From: a bacterium
Lineage (GTDB): Bacteria > SAR324 > NAC60-12
Reading direction: 5' to 3'
Assembly (NCBI GenBank): GCA_965205865.1
Contig: CBDBHR010000028.1
Location: forward strand, 563,656-627,655
DNA: 64,000 bases
The position numbers were made by a program, and so were the translations under genes. The notes under the pieces were generated by a model, which saw only the letters and a program-made list of their open reading frames with translations, was not told the origin of the DNA and made no database searches. How positions within the stretch are numbered: the stretch's first letter is position 1; every line of letters starts with the position of its first letter. Positions 215-60,226 of this stretch are shown one piece after another.

Positions 215-415
215 GCCGATCATTAGCCACACATTACTTGGGGGAATATTCAAAACTACAAGAATATAATCGGGCATGGTATGCCCTTCTGCCGGATCAA
301 GCCCCTTGCGTTTACAAAAATTACGCAAGATGGGATCCATCTGTTGGCGTTTGGCTCCATTAAATTGTTTTGCCCGATTTTTCGGAACAAACACAATATG
401 ATACTTGCGTATCCA
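215..415 (-). pseudogene. IS200/IS605-family TnpA (Y1 transposase) remnant, N- and C-terminally truncated
   Basis: Minus-strand translation LSQFEWIRKYHIVFVPKNRAKQFNGAKRQQMDPILRNFCKRKGLDPAEGHTMPDYILVVLNIPP matches the TnpA core (YHIV-VPK-R...IPPK); no start codon; a 26-bp palindrome lies next to it at 425-470. Confidence 0.4.
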
Positions 416-617
416 TTCAAACTGGGATAGTATTTAATACTCTCACATAGAATACTCTATGAGAGCTAACTCCTGAATTAGCAGTCTGTGGGGATTAATA
501 TCAGGCTGATTGGATGATCAATTATGGCAATTTCATTTCATAGGTCAAAAGCGTGTGATCAAAGTGTTACGACAACATTGATACAACTTTTGCCTCTGCA
601 ATATCTATAAAATCAAC

Positions 618-2783: not shown

Positions 2784-3249
2784 CTGAAAGAATGCGCCTC
2801 AGAAGAACTCGAAAACTATTTTTGAGAAAAATGACACTGTTCCAAATGAAGTTCTAAAAAGAGAATTTCTCACGAAGAAAGGATGGAAAGAATATCATTT
2901 GCAACAAAATTTAAATCGTTCTGAAAAAGCTTCTTTTCAAAAACTACACGCCATCAATGCTTCTCTTGCTTTATAAATCCATCTTGAGCAAGTTGTCTGC
3001 CCGTAACATCAGCTAATTTACACTATCAATTTGTTCACGAAATGCTGCTTCGCTAAATCGGAGAGCAAGCGAATCCCGAGAGATTCCCAAACCGAAATTG
3101 ATAACCGCCGAAACAACCCATTCTCCGTCTAGCAGTATTATTCCAGTTGCTCTGGCCCGAAATTCTTCGTTACCACTGAAACGACCTGTTGTCACCAACA
3201 TGCCAATCGACCCTTTTCGCTCTCCTTTAGAAGCATTTGAGTCATAAGT

Positions 3250-3483
3250 AACCTGAGTTCGACATAAATCTTCAATAATATGAGTATCCTAGTGTATATG
3301 TCATCCTCGCGAAACTTGTCCTCGCGAAAGCGGGGAGCGGGGATCCGGATTTCAGTCTGGCTGTATACCTCCGGATTCCTTCCCTGCGTACGCAGGGATC
3401 TCGCAGGAATGACAAGGTTTCTCTAAGATATGAAGATTCCATAACATATTGAATTTATTAAATTCTTATCTCGAACTCAGGTT
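3250..3483 (+). mobile_element. MITE-A copy 1 (~234-bp non-autonomous element with 15-bp terminal inverted repeats)
   Basis: Termini aacctgagttcgaca ... tctcgaactcaggtt are inverted repeats; the core gtcatcctcgcgaaacttgtcctcgcgaaagcggggagc recurs at 30557, 42581 and (reverse complement) 60124. Confidence 0.6.
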
Positions 3484-4080
3484 AAGTAGTCATCCTCTGG
3501 AGTGTTGGTGCCTGTTCTCAGCAAAATTCACCCTGTGAAGTGTTGGGATTTTGCAAATAGATGGTGTTTTCCGGTGCGTTTCCCCCGGTTTTCAGGGTAA
3601 CAACACTCAAGAGGGAGACTATCAGTTTTTTTGAAGTGACAAAAAAGTTATATTATCCAGTCAGGACAAAATTTCCCAATTCACTTTGCTCTCTCTTGCC
3701 TTACCCGGTGACGAGAGGATCGATCAGCGTCAACAAAGGCAGATTGGATTTTGACATGCCGGAGCAAACGATTGACAAGGAAAAATTGATTGTAGCATTG
3801 AACCGCTTGATTTCGGAAAACCATTGTGTGGAAACTCAATGGAACCACGAACCAGAACTGTAAGCCATTCAAAACTTGGAGGTGGCACCATGTCCGCGCA
3901 ACCGCCAAGAGGGCAAGGAAGAGTTCGTCTGGTCCATGTCAAGGGGTTAGATTTGCAATCCTGCGGATGCGCCTAACTTTCCAGAGCCGGCGAAATCGGC
4001 AAGTTTCTTCTCAGAAAAATAGAAAAGAAAGGGAAACAGAATCGTCGGGTAACAATTGTCTTTGATGAAAGACTGATCCT

Positions 4081-5226: not shown

Positions 5227-5397
5227 AGGAATGAAATTTAAATAAGTTAGAAGTATGGATACGCAAAATTAGGGTACACGTAACAGCAGGCATAAAACAG
5301 TAGAGTTGGGATGCGAAGCGGTGTACATGTCCCCCAATTTTGCTCACACCATTGGAAGAATTACAGGTTATTTAAGGTTTGTTCCTAAACATAAACA
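5227..5397 (+). repeat. Repeat family C copy 1 (~170 bp), immediately upstream of the hydrolase gene
   Basis: Near-identical to the reverse complement of 57246-57405; ends 18 bp before the start codon at 5416. Confidence 0.6.
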
Positions 5398-16778: not shown

Positions 16779-17744
16779 ATGGCTGTTGCAGTGAAGACGC
16801 TGGCACCTGAAACGCAATCTGCTAAGAAAATGGCATGGTTTATTTTCTTCCGCAGGTTGTTCAGAGAGAAGCCGCTAGGGGCTTTTGGCCTGGTCATTGT
16901 CCTGCTCTTCTTCTTCATCGGCATCTTCGCTGATTTTCTCACACCGCATGATTACCTGCAGCATAAACTGCCCAAACGGTTGAAGGGGCCTTCTGCCGAA
17001 TATTTCTTGGGGAACGACCACTTCGGGCGCGATGTGCTCAGCCGTCTGATTGTGGGGGCGCGTATTTCCATGGTCGTCGGGGTGGGAGCAAGTTTCCTCA
17101 CGGTGCTGGTGGCGACGGTTTTCGGGCTCATCTCCGGGTATTGGGGGGGTAAGTTTGACCTCATCCTGCAGCGCTTTGTCGATGCGGTGATGTGCTTCCC
17201 GTGGTTGTTCATCGTCCTGACCGTCATGGGCATCGTCGGGCCGGGGATTGCGCAGGTCACCATCGTTTTGGGAGTTCCCTGGGGCATCAACAACATCCGC
17301 ACAATCCGCAGCGTGGTCTTGAGCGTCAAGCAGAACGCCTATGTCGAAGCGGCCATCGCCACCGGATGCAGCACCCCGAGAATCCTGATCCAACACATCC
17401 TGCCCCAGATCGTGGCCCCTGTGATCATTCTCTTTACCATTACCATGGGAGGCGCCATCCTCGGAGAAGGCGTTGTCAGCTTTTTGGGATTTGGTATCCC
17501 TCCCCCCGAACCCAGTTGGGGCGGCATGCTCAGCTTGGAAGGTCAAAAGTATTTGGAACGGGCCCCGATGCTCGCGCTATGGCCGGGACTCTGCCTGGCC
17601 ATCGTCGTCTTTGGGATCAATATGTTTGGCGATGCCATGCGGGACCTGCTCGATCCCAAGCTGAAACTCGGCATGGGCCGCTTTCACTCTATCAAGAAGA
17701 AAAATCCGGATAGCTCCATTCGTGGGCCACGACCGCGCAGGTAG
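16779..17744 (+). CDS. ABC peptide transporter permease (DppC/OppC-like)
   Basis: 321 aa; paralog of 45642-46613. Confidence 0.8.
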   Translation: MAVAVKTLAPETQSAKKMAWFIFFRRLFREKPLGAFGLVIVLLFFFIGIFADFLTPHDYLQHKLPKRLKGPSAEYFLGNDHFGRDVLSRLIVGARISMVVGVGASFLTVLVATVFGLISGYWGGKFDLILQRFVDAVMCFPWLFIVLTVMGIVGPGIAQVTIVLGVPWGINNIRTIRSVVLSVKQNAYVEAAIATGCSTPRILIQHILPQIVAPVIILFTITMGGAILGEGVVSFLGFGIPPPEPSWGGMLSLEGQKYLERAPMLALWPGLCLAIVVFGINMFGDAMRDLLDPKLKLGMGRFHSIKKKNPDSSIRGPRPRR

Positions 17745-25272: not shown

Positions 25273-25605
25273 ACGTTTATTCAATTCTTGATTTGCATAA
25301 TTTTTATAAATTTATCTGATCTGTCAATAATCAAGGCATGCTGGAAGCAGTGTAAAAATAGGTTAAGAAAGTCTTTTTCCGTGGGGTGGGGTTGGATTCA
25401 GGGTGATGCCAACAACCGATGGCTATTTGCCGCCATGGGATTGGATGTTCATGCGCATCAGTCATAAGCATGGAGACAAAATCTTACTTTCAGGAAAACA
25501 AATTTTTTGCGCTCACTCTATTTTTTCTTGCAATGCGAATAGAATTGTATTAGGAACAATTTTTAAGAACAAATTTTACAGGAAGATAGAGGAGAAATCA
25601 GCAAT

Positions 25606-26510
25606 ATGAACAATGCTACAGAATTTCCATCCGCTTTCAGTGAACCCAAGAGACGTAACATCCTGGTGGATTTCCTGATCAGGCTGGCTACAGAGAAACC
25701 CCTGGGGACCTTTGGTGGGATAATCGTTTTGATCTTTATTTTGGTAGCGATCTTTGCCGACATACTGGCACCTTATCCCCATGTCGAGGTCAACATATTG
25801 GACAGGATGCAAGAGCCCTCCGACCGGTATCTCCTGGGGACTGACCAGTTGGGGCGAGACCTCCTCGGCCGTTTGATTTTCGGGGCGCAAATTTCCTTGA
25901 CCGTCGGTCTGGCGGCGACAGCGCTCAATGTGCTCATTGCTGTCTTGATCGGCAGCATTTCCGGATTCTTTGGAGGAAAAGTGGACCTGGCGGTGCAGCG
26001 CTTCGTCGATGCCTGGATGGCCTTTCCGGGACTGCTTCTCTTGTTAACGATCATGTCCCTCGTGGGGCGGGGTCTCCCCCAGATCATCGTGGTCCTGGGG
26101 GTCACTGGAGTAATCGGAAGCTCGAGAATCGTCCGCAGCGCCGTGATCGGTGTCAAAGAGAATGTCTATTTTCAGGCGGCAGTGGCGATTGGCTGCTCTC
26201 AAGCAAGAATCCTGATCCGCCATGCGCTGCCCAATATTGCCGCCCCGTCATCATCATTTTCACCATTAACATCGGGGCCGTGATAATCAGCGAGGCTGCG
26301 TTGAGCTTCCTTGGATTCGGGTTGCCCGTCAAGGTACCCAGCTGGGGAGGAATGCTCAGCCGGGAAGGGCGTGAGTTCATGGAGATGGCCCCCCGACTGG
26401 CGCTCTGGCCGGGGCTTTGCCTGACGATTGTCGTTTACAGTCTCAACATGTTCGGTGACGCTCTCAGGGACCTGCTTGACCCAAGACTACGGGGTGGGGA
26501 AGGTAGCTAG
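25606..26510 (+). pseudogene. Orphan DppC/OppC-like permease paralog with a 1-bp frameshift
   Basis: ~80 % identical to 45642-46613; frame breaks near 26245 (gccccgtcatcatcatt versus gcgccgatcatcatcatc in the intact copy); no adjacent SBP or DppB. Confidence 0.65.
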
Positions 26511-30460: not shown

Positions 30461-30556
30461 GCTGTCTCCATATATGCAAAAAAAAGGACAACTCGTAGTA
30501 TAGCAAACCAAGGAATTATTTACATATTAATAAAAGAGCGACACAATAGTGAATAT

Positions 30557-30643
30557 GTCATCCTCGCGAAACTTGTCCCCGCGAAAGCGGGGAGCGGGGA
30601 TCCGGATTTCAGTCTGGCTGCATATCTCCGGATTCCTGCTTTC
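30557..30643 (+). repeat. MITE-A copy 2, left part (split by the IS insertion)
   Basis: gtcatcctcgcgaaacttgtccccgcgaaagcggggagcggggatccggatttcagtctggctgcatatctccggattcctgc. Confidence 0.55.
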
Positions 30644-32380: not shown

Positions 32381-32384
32381 TTTC

Positions 32385-32465
32385 GTAGGAATGACAAGGT
32401 TTCTCTAAGATATGAATATTTCATAACATATTGAATTTATTAAATTCTTATCTCGAACTCAGGTT
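32385..32465 (+). repeat. MITE-A copy 2, right part with the terminal inverted repeat
   Basis: gtaggaatgacaaggtttctctaagatatgaatatttcataacatattgaatttattaaattcttatctcgaactcaggtt. Confidence 0.55.
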
Positions 32466-32709
32466 AATTGAAGTGCGAACTGTGGGATTGAATACTGGAG
32501 GCGCTACGACCAGGACGATGGGGCGTTTGGCATCCAGGATGGAGAGATGCGACGCTTTGTCGTCTCTGCCTACGACCCGGCGCATTGGAAAAGACAGGGG
32601 AAAGAGATATTTGAGGTCGGGGAATGGCCCTTTTTATTGCGCAAATCCAAACATTCATAAAACCATATATGCCATCATCGCCTGCAACAACTGTCAGTTG
32701 GCTTCTTGG

Positions 32710-45619: not shown

Positions 45620-45641
45620 GTATTATAGAAAAATCGAGAAC

Positions 45642-46613
45642 ATGAACAACACTCATGAAACACCATTAACAATCAGCGAGCCCAAGCGACGGGGCCGGTT
45701 TGCGGATTTCTTCATCAGGCTGTGGCAGGAGAAGCCCCTGGGTACTGCCTGCGGGATTCTCATCTTGATCTTGATTGTCGTCGCTCTCTTTTCCGAGGGT
45801 CTGGCGCCTTATCCCTATCGGGAAATACACCTGGCCGACATCATGCAAACCCCATCCGCCCAGTATCTCCTGGGGACCGACCACCTGGGGCGAGACTTGT
45901 TGAGCCGCCTTCTCTACGGGGCTCGTATTTCGATAATGGTCGGTTTGGCCGCGACGGCACTCAATGTGATCGTCGCTGTCCTGATTGGCGGCACTTCCGG
46001 ATTCCTTGGGGGGAAAGTGGACCTGGCTGCGCAACGTTTTGTCGATGCCTGGATGGCTTTCCCGGGACTGCTGCTCTTGTTAACTATCATGTCCATCGTG
46101 GGACAAGGGCTCCTTCAGATCATCGTGGTGCTGGGGATCGCCGGAGGTATCGGCGGTTCCCGAGTCATCCGCAGCGCCGTGATTGGTGTCAAAGAGAATG
46201 ACTATTTTCTGGCCGCCCGGGCCGTAGGCACTTCCACGACCAAAATCCTCTTACGGCATGTGCTGCCCAATATTATGGCGCCGATCATCATCATCTTCTC
46301 GATCAACATTGGCGGGGTCATCATTGCCGAAGCCTCGTTGAGCTTCCTCGGATTCGGGCTGCCCGTCAAGGTTCCCAGCTGGGGAGGGATGCTCAGCCGG
46401 GAAGGACGCCAGTACATGGAGCAGGCGCCCCGGCTGGCACTCTGGCCAGGGCTTTGTCTGACGATTGTCGTCTACTCCCTCAACATGTTCGGCGACGCCA
46501 TGCGGGACCTGCTCGATCCCCGGCTGCGGGGCGGGCAGGGCAGTTACGGCGCCGCGAAGATGAAACGTAAAAGAGGATTCCTGGCCAGGTTTATTTCTCC
46601 TTTCAATCATTAG
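45642..46613 (+). CDS. ABC peptide transporter permease (DppC/OppC-like)
   Basis: 323 aa; the intact reference for the pseudogene at 25606-26510. Confidence 0.8.
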   Translation: MNNTHETPLTISEPKRRGRFADFFIRLWQEKPLGTACGILILILIVVALFSEGLAPYPYREIHLADIMQTPSAQYLLGTDHLGRDLLSRLLYGARISIMVGLAATALNVIVAVLIGGTSGFLGGKVDLAAQRFVDAWMAFPGLLLLLTIMSIVGQGLLQIIVVLGIAGGIGGSRVIRSAVIGVKENDYFLAARAVGTSTTKILLRHVLPNIMAPIIIIFSINIGGVIIAEASLSFLGFGLPVKVPSWGGMLSREGRQYMEQAPRLALWPGLCLTIVVYSLNMFGDAMRDLLDPRLRGGQGSYGAAKMKRKRGFLARFISPFNH

Positions 46614-53622: not shown

Positions 53623-53900
53623 TCAAAATATTCTCTCGTCAATTTCTCGTTACGCACCAAACTTTCAAATTTGATGCTCAACTTCCCAGAAAACTCACTC
53701 AATTGATAAAAGAAACCGGTCATGGTGCCATGCATACGCTTGAACTTCCCAAAAGGAATAAAACGACTGACACTGAAATTCTTAAATACGTGAATGATCA
53801 AGACTGCGTCCTCGTCACAAAAGATCAGGATTTTGTCAATTCCTTCCTTGTCTCTCGCCATCCTGATAAGTCATTACCACCGGCAGAGCCGGTGGCTTGA
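53623..53900 (+). pseudogene. DUF5615 PIN-like toxin remnant (no start codon; 3' end encoded by IR-L)
   Basis: ...TFKFDAQLPRKLTQLIKETGHGAMHT...TDTEILKYVNDQDCVLVTKDQDF matches DUF5615 from N- to C-terminus, but the expected ATG is replaced (ACT TTC) and there is an upstream in-frame stop at 53620; the last codons (PAEPVA*) lie inside the inverted repeat. Confidence 0.4.
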
Positions 53901-54434
53901 AAAGGCCCCCAGGATGGGGGCAAAACGTGCTCGTATTCGTAAAACGTGCTCGTGAACGTGAACGAAAGGGGTTATGCTAGATCATGAAAAATTAGATGTT
54001 TACCAATGTTCCATCGAATTTTTAGCATTGAGTGTCCAAATCATTGAGACATTGCTCAGAGGAAACTCTGCCTTAGTTGATCAACTGAAGCGTGCCTCAT
54101 GGTCGATTCCTCTCAATATTGCCGAGGGGTGTGGCAAAACGTCTCTTTCCGACAAGCATCGATTCTACGCGATTGCTCGAGGATCCTCTATGGAATGTGG
54201 CGCGATTCTCGATGTTCTGAAAGTTTTGAAGATCGTTCAGTCTCCATTATTCGATAAAGGAAAACAGTTACTACATCGCATTGTCGCTATGTTAACAAAA
54301 ATGTGTCAACGATCTCACTAATCGTTCACGAGCACGAGCACGGCTCACGGACACGTATACGTTACTCATGTCTGACCGGCAAAGCCTATTAGGTTCGCAC
54401 CAGCAGAGCTGGTGGTTTAATGAATTCAATTACT
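53866..54434 (+). repeat. IR-L: ~569-bp arm of a large inverted duplication, carrying a four-helix-bundle gene inside its own 21-bp stem
   Basis: ~97 % identical to the reverse complement of 59533-60092; internal stem cgtgctcgtgaacgtgaacga (53945-53965) pairs with tcgttcacgagcacgagcacgg (54323-54343) around the ORF. Confidence 0.7.
53974..54321 (+). CDS. Four-helix-bundle protein (23S rRNA intervening-sequence protein / Avd family, PF05635/TIGR02436-like)
   Basis: 115 aa; ...SIPLNIAEGCGKTS... contains the family NIAEG motif; a second copy differing at 6 residues is at 59642-59989. Confidence 0.65.
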   Translation: MLDHEKLDVYQCSIEFLALSVQIIETLLRGNSALVDQLKRASWSIPLNIAEGCGKTSLSDKHRFYAIARGSSMECGAILDVLKVLKIVQSPLFDKGKQLLHRIVAMLTKMCQRSH

Positions 54435-54941
54435 GCTTGTTTCGACAGGAAATATCAAAAATCGGGAGTTAGAAAAGATATTTTCAACAAAGCCGGATCA
54501 AATCATCCGTTTATTTCAAGAATATCATTTCGTTGAATTGAGCAAAGAGTTTCTTCTCATTCATGAGTAAGCCACCTTCACAAGTACACACACGCAACAT
54601 TGTATTACAACATGTCATCTCGACGCCTGGAGAGATCTAAAGATTCCTCGCCTTTGGTTCGGAGTGATACAACAACGGATGTGCTACAATGTCATGTATT
54701 AGTAAAGCCAAAAGCTATTTCGCGTCAGCGACTCGCTATTGTCTAAAAGGAAATTTGTAATATTTTAGCGCGCTTCTCAATAATACTTGACATTGACTGC
54801 AGGGATAGCGGATAGTGCGACAGTTTTTTGTTCCTCAGTCGGAGAGCGAAGGTTACCAAAACCGTGGTGAGCGCCTCGAGGTGGCGCCTGTTCATGCTGC
54901 TCCCAAACCTGCAATATCGTATAGGAAGGATCGAGTTTAAA

Positions 54942-57245: not shown

Positions 57246-57405
57246 TAAGGAACAAACCTTGAATAACCTGTAATTCTTCCAATGGCGTGAGCAAAATTGG
57301 GGGACATGTACAGCGGCATCCCAACTCTACTGTTTTATGCCTGCTGTTACCTGTACCCTAATTTTGCGTATCCATACTTCTAACTTATTTAAATTTCATT
57401 CCTAA
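57246..57405 (-). repeat. Repeat family C copy 2, ~140 bp upstream of the AKR start
   Basis: Reverse complement is near-identical to 5227-5397. Confidence 0.6.
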
Positions 57406-57676
57406 GATCTCGTAAGTCATTGAAAAATTAAGTCTGTGTTGCGCACTTTGTCATTCCCGCGAAGCATGTCCCCCTGAAAGAGAGGAACGAGAATATGAAA
57501 AGAGGCAAGGGGGATTTCCCAAAACGTTATCCTATCAAACGTCTCAAGGGATAACCAGCATAAATATTGATCTAATTGACTCGGCAACAGAAATGGATAA
57601 ATTTTAAGGGCACCTTTCATTTTCCAGTTTACAGTTCCCTAAGTTGAGCGATTCGTAATAAAAAAAGCTCCCAACC

Positions 57677-59156
57677 TTGGGAAAAATGTGTTATATTTCA
57701 GTGGTTAAAATAAAAAAATTCACAAAATCTAACACAACCCAACAGGTAGAGAGCTTTATGGAAAAAAATATAACAGTTCAGGATAAAAAGAAACAGATAA
57801 TTGATGCCATTCAGCCAACCGATGAACACTTGACAAGTCGTGCCGGATTGGCCTTGTTTGCCCAGTATCTGCAAAGCATTCGGCTGATGCCGATCATCGA
57901 AAGGTTGTTTGGTTCGATGCGTAAAAATAAAAAAGGAATTGCTGTCTCTGATTTTTTTGCGCAGATCCTCTGTTTTTTCATGGACGGCAGCAGCCGTCAT
58001 CTCAGTTGGTTCGATCACCTCAAAAGGGGCGAGGGTTATGCCGCCTTGCTGTCATGCAGTGAGCAAGACCTTGCCTCCTCGCATGCCGTGAAAAGATTTT
58101 TTGGAAAGTTCTCTTTTGTACGAGTCTACCTGTTTCGTCATCTGCTGCAGATACTGTTTATCTGGAGACTGAAGAAGACTTGTCCAACGGTGATTGTGTT
58201 GGGTCTGGATTCGATGGTACTTGATAATGATGATGCCCTGAAACGCCATGGTGTCCAGCCGACTTACAAGATGGTCAAAGGATTTCATCCCCTGCAGATG
58301 AATTGGGGTCGTTATATGGTTGACGCAGTTTTTCGCGGAGGTAGCAAACATTCGAATCACGGGAAAACTGTTCAGAATATGCTGGTTCATATCGTGAAAA
58401 GGATTCGCCGCCAATACCGAGATGATGTACCAATCATGGTGCGCATGGACACCGGTTTTTTTGACGAAAAAATCTTTGAAACCTGTGAACGACTGAACAT
58501 CGGTTAGCTGAAGCGGAGGAAAGTCCTATGCCAATGTGAGGAATGCTGCGGAAGAAGCCACTGACTGGCAGACCTTCACTTCATCGGGCAAGAAGGAGAT
58601 CTGGCAGTACACCGAGTTTAAGAGCCAGCAGGGGACATGGAAGAAGGCTCGTCGCACGATCTACAGCCGCTTGATTGAACACGATAGCCAACTCTCTTTG
58701 CCGGGTTTGGATCATGATGGCGTGATCATTACGAACCTTGGTATGGGAGAGGCCATTGATGGCCAACTCAGCCAAGCCGCTGAAGAAAAGCGCATCGATG
58801 CTCATAGCATCCTTGGCTCGTACCACGGACGGGGAAAGGATGAACTGGCCAACCGGGCGCTGAAAAACTTTGGTCATCAACAACTTCCCTTCAAGGACTT
58901 CATTTCCAATACCGCATGGTACTATCTGATGCTGCTTGGCAATAACCTCTTCGAATCCTTCAAAGAAGATGTCAGCAAGCCAGTGATTGCGGTAACGATG
59001 TATGCTGATACCTTCCGGCGCCAGTTTCTTGATACGGCAGGCAAACTGCTTCGTCATGCCGGAAAACTGATCTTGAAAATACCAAAAAAGACCTTTGAGC
59101 GCTTGCAATTGGACCAACTATTTGCCACCTGCCAGCACGCATTGGCGCCAATCTGA
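57677..59156 (+). pseudogene. IS1380-family transposase split by a frameshift (ORFs 57677-58507 and 58536-59156)
   Basis: N-terminal HLTSRAGLALFAQYLQSI... and the C-terminal DDE part are in different frames; IS1380 transposases are normally a single ORF; IS termini not identified. Confidence 0.6.
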
Positions 59157-59398
59157 TCAACGGGTTTCGCTTCAATTAAAAAACAAAAACATTAAAGTTT
59201 AAGGGGATAAGTGCGTCCAAAACATGAGAAATGAAGACCTTCCACATCTGAAAACAGCATTTTGATGCTCATTCTCACTCAAACATCCATGGATTTGATG
59301 ATCAAAATCTGATTTCAGAATGATTGCCTTTCTCAGGCAAAAAAATCATCTTGAAAATCTGATCCTTTTTTAGAATCGCTCAATTTGGGAGTTCCTCT

Positions 59399-59466: not shown

Positions 59467-59532
59467 AACAAAGGCGGCAAACTGTAAACTACTTTTTTCT
59501 ATTTTTGAAGGGTCCCATTTTAAGCAATATTA

Positions 59533-60092
59533 ATTGAATTCATTAAACCACCAGCTCTGCTGGTGCGAACCTAATAGGCTTTGCCGGTCAGGCATGAGTA
59601 ACGTATACGTGTCCGTGAGCCGTGCTCGTGCTCGTGAACGATTAGTGAGATCGTTGACACATTTTTGTTAACATAGCGACAATGCGATGTAGCAACTGTT
59701 TTCCTTTATCGAATATTGGAGACTGAATGATCTTCAAAACTTTCAGAACATCGAGAATCGCACCACATTCCATAGAGGATCCTCGAGCAATCGCGTAGAA
59801 TCGCTGCTTGTCGGAAAGAGACGTTTTGCCACACCCCTCGGCAATATTGAGAGGAATCAACCATGAGGCGCGCTTCAGTTGATCAACTAAGGCAGAGTTT
59901 TCTCTGGGCAATGTCTCAATGATTTGGACACTCAATGCTAAAAATTCGATGGAACATTGGTAAACATCTAATTTTTCATGATCTAGCATAACCTCTTTCG
60001 TTCACGTTCACGAGCACGTTTTACGAATACGAGCACGTTTTGCCCCCATCCTGGGGGCCTTTTCAAGCCACCGGCACTGCCGCTGGTGATGA
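59533..60092 (-). repeat. IR-R: ~560-bp arm of the large inverted duplication
   Basis: Reverse complement matches 53866-54434 with a few mismatches. Confidence 0.7.
59642..59989 (-). CDS. Four-helix-bundle protein (23S rRNA IVS protein / Avd family), second copy
   Basis: 115 aa; 109/115 identical to the 53974-54321 product. Confidence 0.65.
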   Translation of the reverse strand: MLDHEKLDVYQCSIEFLALSVQIIETLPRENSALVDQLKRASWLIPLNIAEGCGKTSLSDKQRFYAIARGSSMECGAILDVLKVLKIIQSPIFDKGKQLLHRIVAMLTKMCQRSH

Positions 60093-60123
60093 CTTCCTAT
60101 TCTTTCAAAATCATCCTGTGAAC

Positions 60124-60226
60124 GTCATCGCTCCCTGCTCCCCGCTTTCGCGAGGACAAGTTTCGCGAGGATGACATATAAACTAGGATACTCAAATTAT
60201 TGAAGATTTATGTCGAACTCGGGTTA
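60124..60226 (-). repeat. MITE-A partial copy (TIR-proximal ~100 bp), truncated at the IR-R junction
   Basis: Reverse complement aacccgagttcgacataaatcttcaataatttgagtatcctagtttatatgtcatcctcgcgaaacttgtcctcgcgaaagcggggagc matches the left end of copy 1 (3250-3345). Confidence 0.5.

Follow-up and report, generated by a model that had tools for sequence, protein, structure and literature searches.

The window (the whole stretch of DNA analysed, 64,000 nucleotides) contains at 53974-54321, on the plus strand, an ORF that encodes a four-helix-bundle protein of 115 amino acids with the motif LNIAEGCGK. The ORF is enclosed by an inverted repeat with a perfect core of 14 nt at 53945-53958 and 54323-54336, which extends to 42 nt with 76% complementarity at 53924-53965 and 54322-54363. 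The upstream arm is composed of CGTNNN hexamers and the downstream arm of complementary NNNACG hexamers, both described here on the plus strand. The ATG lies 8 nt past the end of the upstream arm, and the stop codon directly abuts the downstream arm. Upstream of the ORF and included in the upstream arm, a direct repeat of 19 nt (AAAACGTGCTCGT...) had been claimed from inspection of the letters, and it is indeed present in two tandem occurrences, at 53922-53940 and 53941-53959. The minimum-energy structure has the upstream arm paired with the downstream arm. Folding of the unit gave a z-score of -5.25 as RNA and of -6.19 as DNA, none of the shuffled sequences folding as well, and the arm-arm duplex gave a z-score of -9.9 in comparison with shuffled arms. 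The structure thus exceeds chance, and the stem-loop with an ORF in its loop, with which the sequence-only reading had begun, is real.

The protein matched the profile PF05635 with an E-value of 3.8e-22 and 79 bits (cutoff 33.8; 81.5 bits for the protein of the second copy described below) and TIGR02436 with an E-value of 3.2e-21 and 75.6 bits (cutoff 24), both above cutoffs, so its early assignment to the 23S-IVP four-helix-bundle family stands. The AlphaFold model of the monomer shows four helices with a pLDDT of 93.1. The best Foldseek matches were the S23p proteins 2GSC and 2RLD (TM 0.88 each), and 2GSC (XCC0516) was also found by phmmer at an E-value of 8.5e-10. The Avd proteins of diversity-generating retroelements (DGRs) were matched with TM values of 0.77-0.80 at 8-9% identity.

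The existence of a second copy of the module, likewise noticed at the outset, was borne out: it is located at 59536-60094, inverted relative to the first and about 5 kb away, in intergenic repeat DNA. The repeat search gave 95% complementarity for the pair. The identity of the two copies spans AAGTCAT (53868) to CAATTA (54432) and then stops, the 595-nt arm returned by the repeat finder extending about 30 nt past the actual boundary on the right. Alignment of at least 57 copies, comparison of empty and filled sites and restoration of an interrupted gene, all described below, set copy 1 at 53869-54427, i.e. 559 nt with the top strand on the minus strand of the window. A small mobile module had been one of the initial suggestions; the mobility is upheld, but the stem is not the boundary of what moves, the unit being these 559 nt with ends of IS200 type. 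Copy 2 has the same length and its top strand is the plus strand of the window.

The left end (LE) of copy 1 occupies 54366-54427 on the minus strand and aligns with the LE of the tnpA-bearing elements L091, L104 and L113. It consists of 13 nt, a hairpin CACCAGC-TCT-GCTGGTG (54398-54414) and then CGAACCTAATAGGCTTTGCCGGTCAGACATGA. The right end (RE), at 53869-53921 on the same strand, aligns with the RE of L091, L113, L151 and L153 and contains two hairpins. The hairpin GCCCCC-ATCCT-GGGGGC (53905-53921) is the counterpart of a terminator-like hairpin located after tnpA in the relatives, and the second one, CCACCGGC-TCT-GCCGGTGG (53877-53895), is followed by 8 nt ending in TGACT. The three hairpins were predicted in the folds. 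The top strand therefore reads TAATT, 13 nt, LE hairpin and so on to the hairpin CCACCGGC-TCT-GCCGGTGG and 8 nt ending in TGACT, the hairpins being subterminal, at 13 nt from the left terminus and 8 nt from the right one. The pentamer lies immediately 5' of the left end, outside the element, at 54428-54432 (AATTA on the plus strand, 5'-TAATT-3' on the top strand). Between the two ends, at 53922-54365, lies a cassette of 444 nt made of arm, Shine-Dalgarno sequence, ORF and arm, which approximates the interval flagged at first; it reads on the plus strand, antisense to the IS200 top strand. In copy 2 the LE is at 59536-59597, the RE, with two changes in its hairpin, at 60042-60094, the arms at 59600-59641 and 59998-60039, the ORF at 59642-59989 on the minus strand, and the target pentamer TAATT at 59531-59535 on the plus strand. 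Genome-wide REP hairpins were considered and rejected, the hairpin motif being confined to these elements in the window and in the loci of the metagenome-assembled genome (MAG) treated below. One other match to the motif lies inside a gene (L039:126), by chance.

Copy 1 splits a gene for a DUF5615 protein (PIN-like toxin), whose joined halves match PF18480 with an E-value of 2e-16. The 5' part, with a start that is also decayed, is at 53667-53868 and the 3' part, with the stop codon, at 54428-54570, both on the plus strand, and the first 5 nt of the 3' part are the target pentamer. The first fragment ends with ...VSRHPDK at 53868-53870, and the frame continues as LLLVSTGNIKN...LLIHE* after 54430. 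Excision of exactly 53869-54427 yields RHPDKLLLVSTGNIKN and restores the conserved motif K-LLLVSTGN, which aligns without gaps to P-x-K-LLLVSTGNI of eight full-length DUF5615 homologues of 117 amino acids. Alternative in-frame deletions lose the invariant K plus an L, or replace L by S. Since only the deletion of 53869-54427 restores the K-L pair, the AATTA at 54428-54432 is host sequence. The location in this gene, together with the empty Rfam result for 53700-54600, also agrees with the earlier statement that the ORF lies outside any rRNA gene, and by the same evidence the suggestion of an rRNA intervening sequence (IVS) relic had to be given up.

When one genome per species was scanned, the single chromosome returned was that of a MAG, OZ242383.1 (4.26 Mb). 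More than 50 of its loci encode a protein 83-85% identical to that of the window, and at least 57 distinct insertions were counted within the approximately 11% of the chromosome examined. Identity to a reference copy over 567 nt is 97-100% for these insertions, and they share about 85% with the window copies; tandem, nested and internally deleted ORF-less forms are among them, and about 50 scattered copies have no neighbour in common. Further copies with the same ends are found in L201 and L202. At 90% identity, the protein cluster of the MAG lineage has 200 members and that of the window lineage 40. All copies begin with AGTCATCACCACCGGCAGAGCCGGTGG and finish with ...GCTGGTGGTTTAATGAGATT, followed by AATTA. 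In the MAG copies (n = 57) the ends are sharp and the flanks unrelated, with neither terminal inverted repeats nor target duplication. AATTA adjoins 51 of 58 MAG copies, the background being 0.0008 per position, and TAATT also flanks both window copies and that in L202. In the MAG 48 of 49 insertion sites have no long ORF across the junction, a count that says nothing on read-through. As regards the lagging-strand bias of IS200/IS605 elements, the MAG copies are reversed 35 times and forward 17 times, and the flat GC skew gives no direction of replication. Comparison of the element with plasmid and phage collections gave no match.

The parse of the target was obtained from a host repeat of the MAG that occurs in both forms. 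The empty form reads ...TTGATTTTATA AATTA AATTTCAAC... (L007, L026, L038, L025), and the filled form ...TTGATTTTATA [AGTCA...GAGATT] AATTA AATTTCAAC... (L016, L032, L045). Since the empty repeats keep AATTA, the pentamer pre-exists the insertion. One empty variant without AATTA (L058) leaves the parse ambiguous if taken alone, and the ambiguity is settled by the DUF5615 restoration. The opposite assignment, with AGTCA as the target and AATTA as the cleavage site at the far end, is ruled out by the empty sites and the DUF5615 alignment; AGTCA (TGACT on the top strand) is, as judged from these alignments, the right terminus of the element itself. In L009 one element directly adjoins another, and AATTA occurs once, behind the second, an arrangement expected if a new copy used the target kept by the resident one. 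At the identical TAATT of the same host repeat, locus L018 of the MAG carries a different, tnpA-bearing IS200. The element has proliferated recently, and it inserted 3' of TAATT without target duplication.

Relatives that carry a transposase gene were found in metagenome contigs scanned with the LE motif TTAAACCACCRGCTCTGCYGGTG. At least 120 contigs matched, and 80 loci were read. In about 20 of the 80, mostly those with enough downstream DNA, an IS200-type tnpA follows on the same strand, its start lying 105-150 nt downstream. The TnpA proteins have about 140 amino acids and the elements are about 600 nt long; the three proteins scanned (from L091, L104 and the MAG locus L006) matched PF01797 with E-values of 1e-36 to 1e-39. 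The LE of these relatives, with TAATT in front of it, aligns with that of the 559-nt element over about 62 nt, nearly base for base, and the RE over about 53 nt, the GC hairpin after tnpA included. The homology ends at 54365/54366 and at 53921/53922, i.e. at the two limits of the cassette, and the 444-nt interval hence occupies the place of tnpA, in antisense. TAATT is located at most 16 nt upstream of the LE in 61 of 79 metagenome loci. In other derivatives of the backbone the interior is unrelated DNA or a tnpA with an internal deletion, and ORF-less forms were seen in L152, L145, L159 and L026:4868-5077. The four-helix-bundle ORF was absent from all 80 metagenome loci with this LE.

The 559-nt element itself encodes no Y1 (HUH) transposase, its sole ORF being the one that matches PF05635. 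Neither the window nor the approximately 11% of OZ242383.1 examined yielded a tnpA with matching ends, and none of the best 120 of at least 7,938 relatives in a TnpA profile search was on the relevant chromosomes. The tnpA genes that tblastn did find, three in MAG loci and, in the window, one that has decayed, are all associated with other hairpins. Lacking a transposase gene, the element must, we infer, be moved in trans by a Y1 TnpA; it is filed as a non-autonomous derivative and not as an insertion sequence proper. Both window copies are very probably a 559-nt non-autonomous element of the IS200 group (IS200/IS605), presumably served by TnpA in trans and loaded with a four-helix-bundle cassette.

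Members of the IS200/IS605 family have neither terminal inverted repeats nor target duplications, possess subterminal hairpins and insert 3' of a tetra- or pentanucleotide that is retained (PMC5027513). The element follows these rules for the lack of inverted repeats and duplication, the hairpins and the retained target as IS608 and ISDra2 do, and at both LE and RE it is homologous to the tnpA-bearing IS200 of about 600 nt. It differs from them in the absence of tnpA, in whose stead it holds the antisense cassette. The target differs as well, being TAATT here, whereas IS608 uses TTAC and ISDra2 TTGAT. No convincing pattern of pairing between guide and cleavage sites in the style of IS608 was recognised by eye. 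With the PATE- or MITE-like non-autonomous members of IS200/IS605 the element shares ends of an autonomous family, the lack of transposase and a high copy number, and with the tnpB-only and iscB-only elements, which are mobilised in trans, it shares the keeping of a selected gene other than a transposase. Unlike in these non-autonomous elements, however, the gene is a PF05635 gene with its own stem and not TnpB, IscB or Arc. The genes known on IS200/IS605 elements are tnpB, iscB, arc and group I introns, a list to which the PF05635 gene adds a new kind of cargo. In the literature searched, no listed paper mentioned "four helix bundle protein" together with IS200, IS605 or TnpA.

By analogy with those systems, a Y1 (HUH) TnpA acting in trans would excise the top strand as a single-strand circle ("peel and paste"), which would then be inserted into single-stranded DNA 3' of TAATT. 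Under such a scheme the circle junction would be ...GGTGGTAATGACT joined to GAATTCATTAAAC..., that is ...ATGACT|GAATTC..., and the donor would be restored as ...GATA|AATTA... on excision. The cassette most likely folds into the long stem, whose loop would hold both the ORF and its ribosome-binding site. The stem may be a substrate of RNase III type, by analogy with 23S rRNA intervening sequences, in which case cleavage could release or stabilise the ORF RNA from host read-through transcripts. A sigma-70 promoter scan returned nothing usable for the ORF. In single-stranded DNA, pairing of the arms could conceivably draw the ends of the element together. Stem processing of RNase III type that releases the ORF RNA has been documented for the IVS of Coxiella (PMC4990558).

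The ORF-bearing 23S IVSs of Coxiella, Leptospira, Brucella and Xanthomonas (S23p) offer a close likeness to the cassette, sharing with it the protein family and the location of the ORF in the loop of an inverted-repeat stem. The IVS of Coxiella has 428-444 nt, compared with 444 nt here, and upstream tandem heptamers, compared with hexamers here (PMC4990558). The 559-nt element differs from such IVSs in its IS200-type ends, its defined target, its demonstrably multi-copy state and its location outside rRNA: IVSs are positioned in the 23S rRNA gene at helix 25 or 45, and neither window copy is. Whence rRNA IVSs originate and whether they are mobile has been an open question since about 1990 (PMC4990558), and the earlier idea, cited in that work, takes IVSs for remnants of transposition or for mobile elements whose ORF serves mobility. 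This idea gains a concrete and testable vehicle, since the IVS-type stem-ORF-stem design is now placed in a well-understood one, with a defined target, defined ends and a selected protein, which shows recent bursts of 50 to 200 copies. It can now be tested whether a Y1 TnpA moves the cassette and what the protein does for the element.

The comparison of the two lineages bears on the protein. For the window lineage against the MAG lineage, dS amounts to 0.9 and dN to 0.095, a dN/dS of 0.10, which argues that the protein is maintained by selection. Identity between the lineages is 91-95% for the ends and the downstream arm, 85% for the upstream arm and 81% for the ORF. The ORF is broken in 16 of 54 full-length MAG copies, and between the ORFs of copy 1 and copy 2 there are 6 non-synonymous changes as well as 3 synonymous ones, from which it follows that a single copy can do without the protein. 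By these substitution patterns the protein is kept by selection across the life of the element lineage, and the combination of broken copies with selection at the level of the lineage is what is usually seen when a multi-copy element encodes a product that acts in trans.

A rival explanation takes the protein for a transposon accessory instead of a passive passenger: it might be a regulator, a chaperone of single-stranded DNA or RNA or a retention factor, comparable to Arc or TnpB in IS605, and might bind the hexamer arrays in oligomeric form. Purifying selection within a selfish multi-copy lineage speaks for this role, as does the presence of the cassette in two IS200 backbones, of CACCAGC type here and of CCGCC type in the lineage of L054 and L203-L206. 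The triplet repeated every 6 nt in the arms resembles the arrays used by ring-shaped RNA-binding proteins, of which TRAP is an example. The closest solved relative, 2GSC, is described as a homopentameric toroid (PMC4990558), and Avd shares the fold and belongs to the solved ribonucleoprotein of a DGR reverse transcriptase (8UB7). However, the tnpA-bearing relatives manage without the protein, and the ORF was missing from the 80 metagenome loci read. The accessory role is on balance possible though rather unlikely. A broader version holds that IVS-protein cassettes are a hitherto unrecognised accessory module of IS200-type single-strand DNA transposons, that ORF-bearing rRNA IVSs descend from such insertions into rrn operons and that the oligomer binds the CGT/ACG arrays around its gene and so acts on RNA or single-stranded DNA of the element. 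IS608 reportedly inserts often into rrn genes (PMC5027513); we nevertheless consider the broader version quite unlikely. If true, this accessory-module reading would supply both a function for the S23p family and an origin for rRNA intervening sequences. Solved structures (2GSC, 2RLD) exist for the large S23p/23S-IVS four-helix-bundle family, and to our knowledge no function is known for it outside the DGR relative Avd.

The distribution of the stem-ORF-stem cassette was also considered apart from its vehicle. Conservation of the flanking inverted repeat, which the original interpretation needed, was seen in the further copies as well as among distant homologues. Hexamer arms flank homologues in Planctomycetota, Desulfobacterota, Nitrospinota and Myxococcota, with duplex z-scores of -5 to -10.5; these arm-bearing homologues (54-69% identity) come from Lacipirellulaceae, Desulfobacterales, Nitrospinota, Polyangiales, Kofleriaceae and Bradymonadales. 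Their arms use different hexamers, yet the two sides stay complementary. More distant homologues (Lentisphaerae, Verrucomicrobia, archaea) are without such arms. Most arm-bearing homologues are not surrounded by IS200-type ends, and therefore the cassette exists independently of the IS200 vehicle. The exception is a lineage at 68% identity (L054, L062, L203-L206), in which the LE of the second IS200 type, that with the CCGCC hairpin, follows the cassette.

It could be proposed that the cassette itself is the mobile unit, moving by its own mechanism, perhaps dependent on the four-helix-bundle protein, and that the IS200 ends are incidental, the result of a single landing in an IS200-derived miniature element. 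The arm-ORF-arm design, present in four phyla mostly without IS200-type ends and also inside 23S rRNA genes (PMC4990558), is consistent with this proposal, and Ralph and McClelland (1993), as reported in PMC4990558, suggested that the IVS ORF serves mobility. Nevertheless, the at least 57 MAG copies, both window copies, L201 and L202 end at the IS200 ends next to TAATT and never at the arms, no solo cassettes were seen in these genomes, and the deletion derivatives retain the IS200 ends and lose the ORF. Independent movement of the cassette as the explanation for these copies is accordingly very improbable.

A relic of a DGR, with the ORF as its Avd gene, had been suggested too. The Avd-like fold is what would recommend it, but the match to the S23p proteins 2GSC and 2RLD is better both in structure and in sequence, the Pfam scan of the neighbours of both copies (TPP enzyme, ADC, SDRs, Ldh_2, aldo-keto reductase, DDE transposase, EEP protein) finds no reverse transcriptase, and the window-wide repeat search gives no pair of template and variable repeats near either copy, which leaves this suggestion practically no chance. 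A fragment of an IVS-bearing 23S rRNA gene, or an immobile segmental inverted duplication, has a negligible probability: the design and length resemble the IVS of Coxiella as noted, but no Rfam family, rRNA included, lies at 53700-54600, copy 1 precisely interrupts a protein-coding gene, and dozens of copies are located at unrelated sites. The absence of reverse transcriptase and of rRNA thus rules out both a DGR relic and an rRNA IVS.

The interpretation of both window copies as a non-autonomous IS200-group element has a consequence for annotation, in that genes called "four helix bundle protein" with these flanks should be called transposon insertions. In the window one such element has inactivated a nuclease gene of toxin-antitoxin type, the DUF5615 gene. 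Truncated products of the same interrupted gene were found in other samples (P0002, P0016).

Among the insertions on chromosome OZ242383.1, several copies of the four-helix-bundle (4HB) element carry ends or junctions that depart from the common form. At L009:1470-1530 two adjacent elements are fused via a chimeric hairpin, CACCAGCAGAG|CCGGTGG, in which the hairpin of one end supplies the left half and that of the other end the right half; this arrangement points to recombination, or to an aberrant transfer of strands, at these hairpins. Two further copies, at L002:2893 and L005:1426, start with AATTATCACC and not with AGTCATCACC; read on the top strand, their right terminus is not TGACT but TAATT, as in the target. 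TAATT and TGACT alike match the pattern T-R-A-Y-T. Tandem copies are linked by one identical junction, ...GAGATTAATTA-A-AGTCATC..., which occurs three times, once in L004 (3435-3475) and twice in L058 (310-350 and 2870-2910). Either such dimers transpose as a whole, or insertion favours a TAATT that lies one base off the right end.

On a Desulfobacterales contig (L050:2600-3500) each side of the 4HB ORF bears units composed of a downstream-type arm, a spacer and an upstream-type arm. These units are local hairpins that use the hexamers of the arms, and they look as though cassettes were lined up in tandem. The homologues from Lentisphaerae, Verrucomicrobia and Binatia (L065-L070) lack the complementary downstream arm and have in common a different conserved motif, GTACACGTTCACAGCGGAGCGGTACACGT, located 60-100 nt upstream of the ORF.

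An IS200-type transposase gene, tnpA, occurs in the window as a remnant, and also on OZ242383.1. Similarity to IS200 TnpA revealed a decayed remnant on the minus strand of the window (230-480), in which residues 7-70 retain 42% identity and the HUH motif is gone; upstream of it lie TAATT and a hairpin, CTCTCATAGAG…CTATGTGAGAG, unlike that of the 4HB element. On OZ242383.1 a tnpA-bearing IS200 with a hairpin of the CCGCC type (L018:60-700) sits in a host repeat at the identical TAATT where several 4HB elements have inserted, and its tnpA has an in-frame TAG at the position of a tryptophan (W) in its relatives (…GRHF-stop-ARGYF…).

A repeat search of the window detected a MITE-like family (…TCGAACTCAGGTTAA…, GTCATCCTCGCGAAAC…GCGGGGAGCGGGGA) with at least three occurrences, at 3249-3485, 30547-30637, 32383-32467 and 60132-60226, and one of its copies directly adjoins copy 2 of the 4HB element. 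Since the TCGAACTCAGGTTAA motif also stands beside 4HB elements in OZ242383.1 (L004, L024), repeat families seem to be common to the window organism and OZ242383.1, and the two are probably related. The same search, together with a Pfam scan, located between copies 1 and 2 an insertion sequence (57248-59160) whose DDE_Tnp_1_4 transposase is broken into two ORFs (57677-58507 and 58536-59156); its 156-nt flank (57248-57403) is repeated inverted at 5227-5386. Diverged direct repeats, at 17422-17683, 26248-26509 and 46285-46546, and at 25592-25891 and 45628-45927, are 64-81% identical at intervals of about 9 and 20 kb and are probably paralogous genes.

The DUF5615 gene split by copy 1 has also lost its start (53655-53720), reading FKFDAQLP in the window versus MKFLIDAQLP in an intact relative (P0002), so the gene has been decaying since the insertion.
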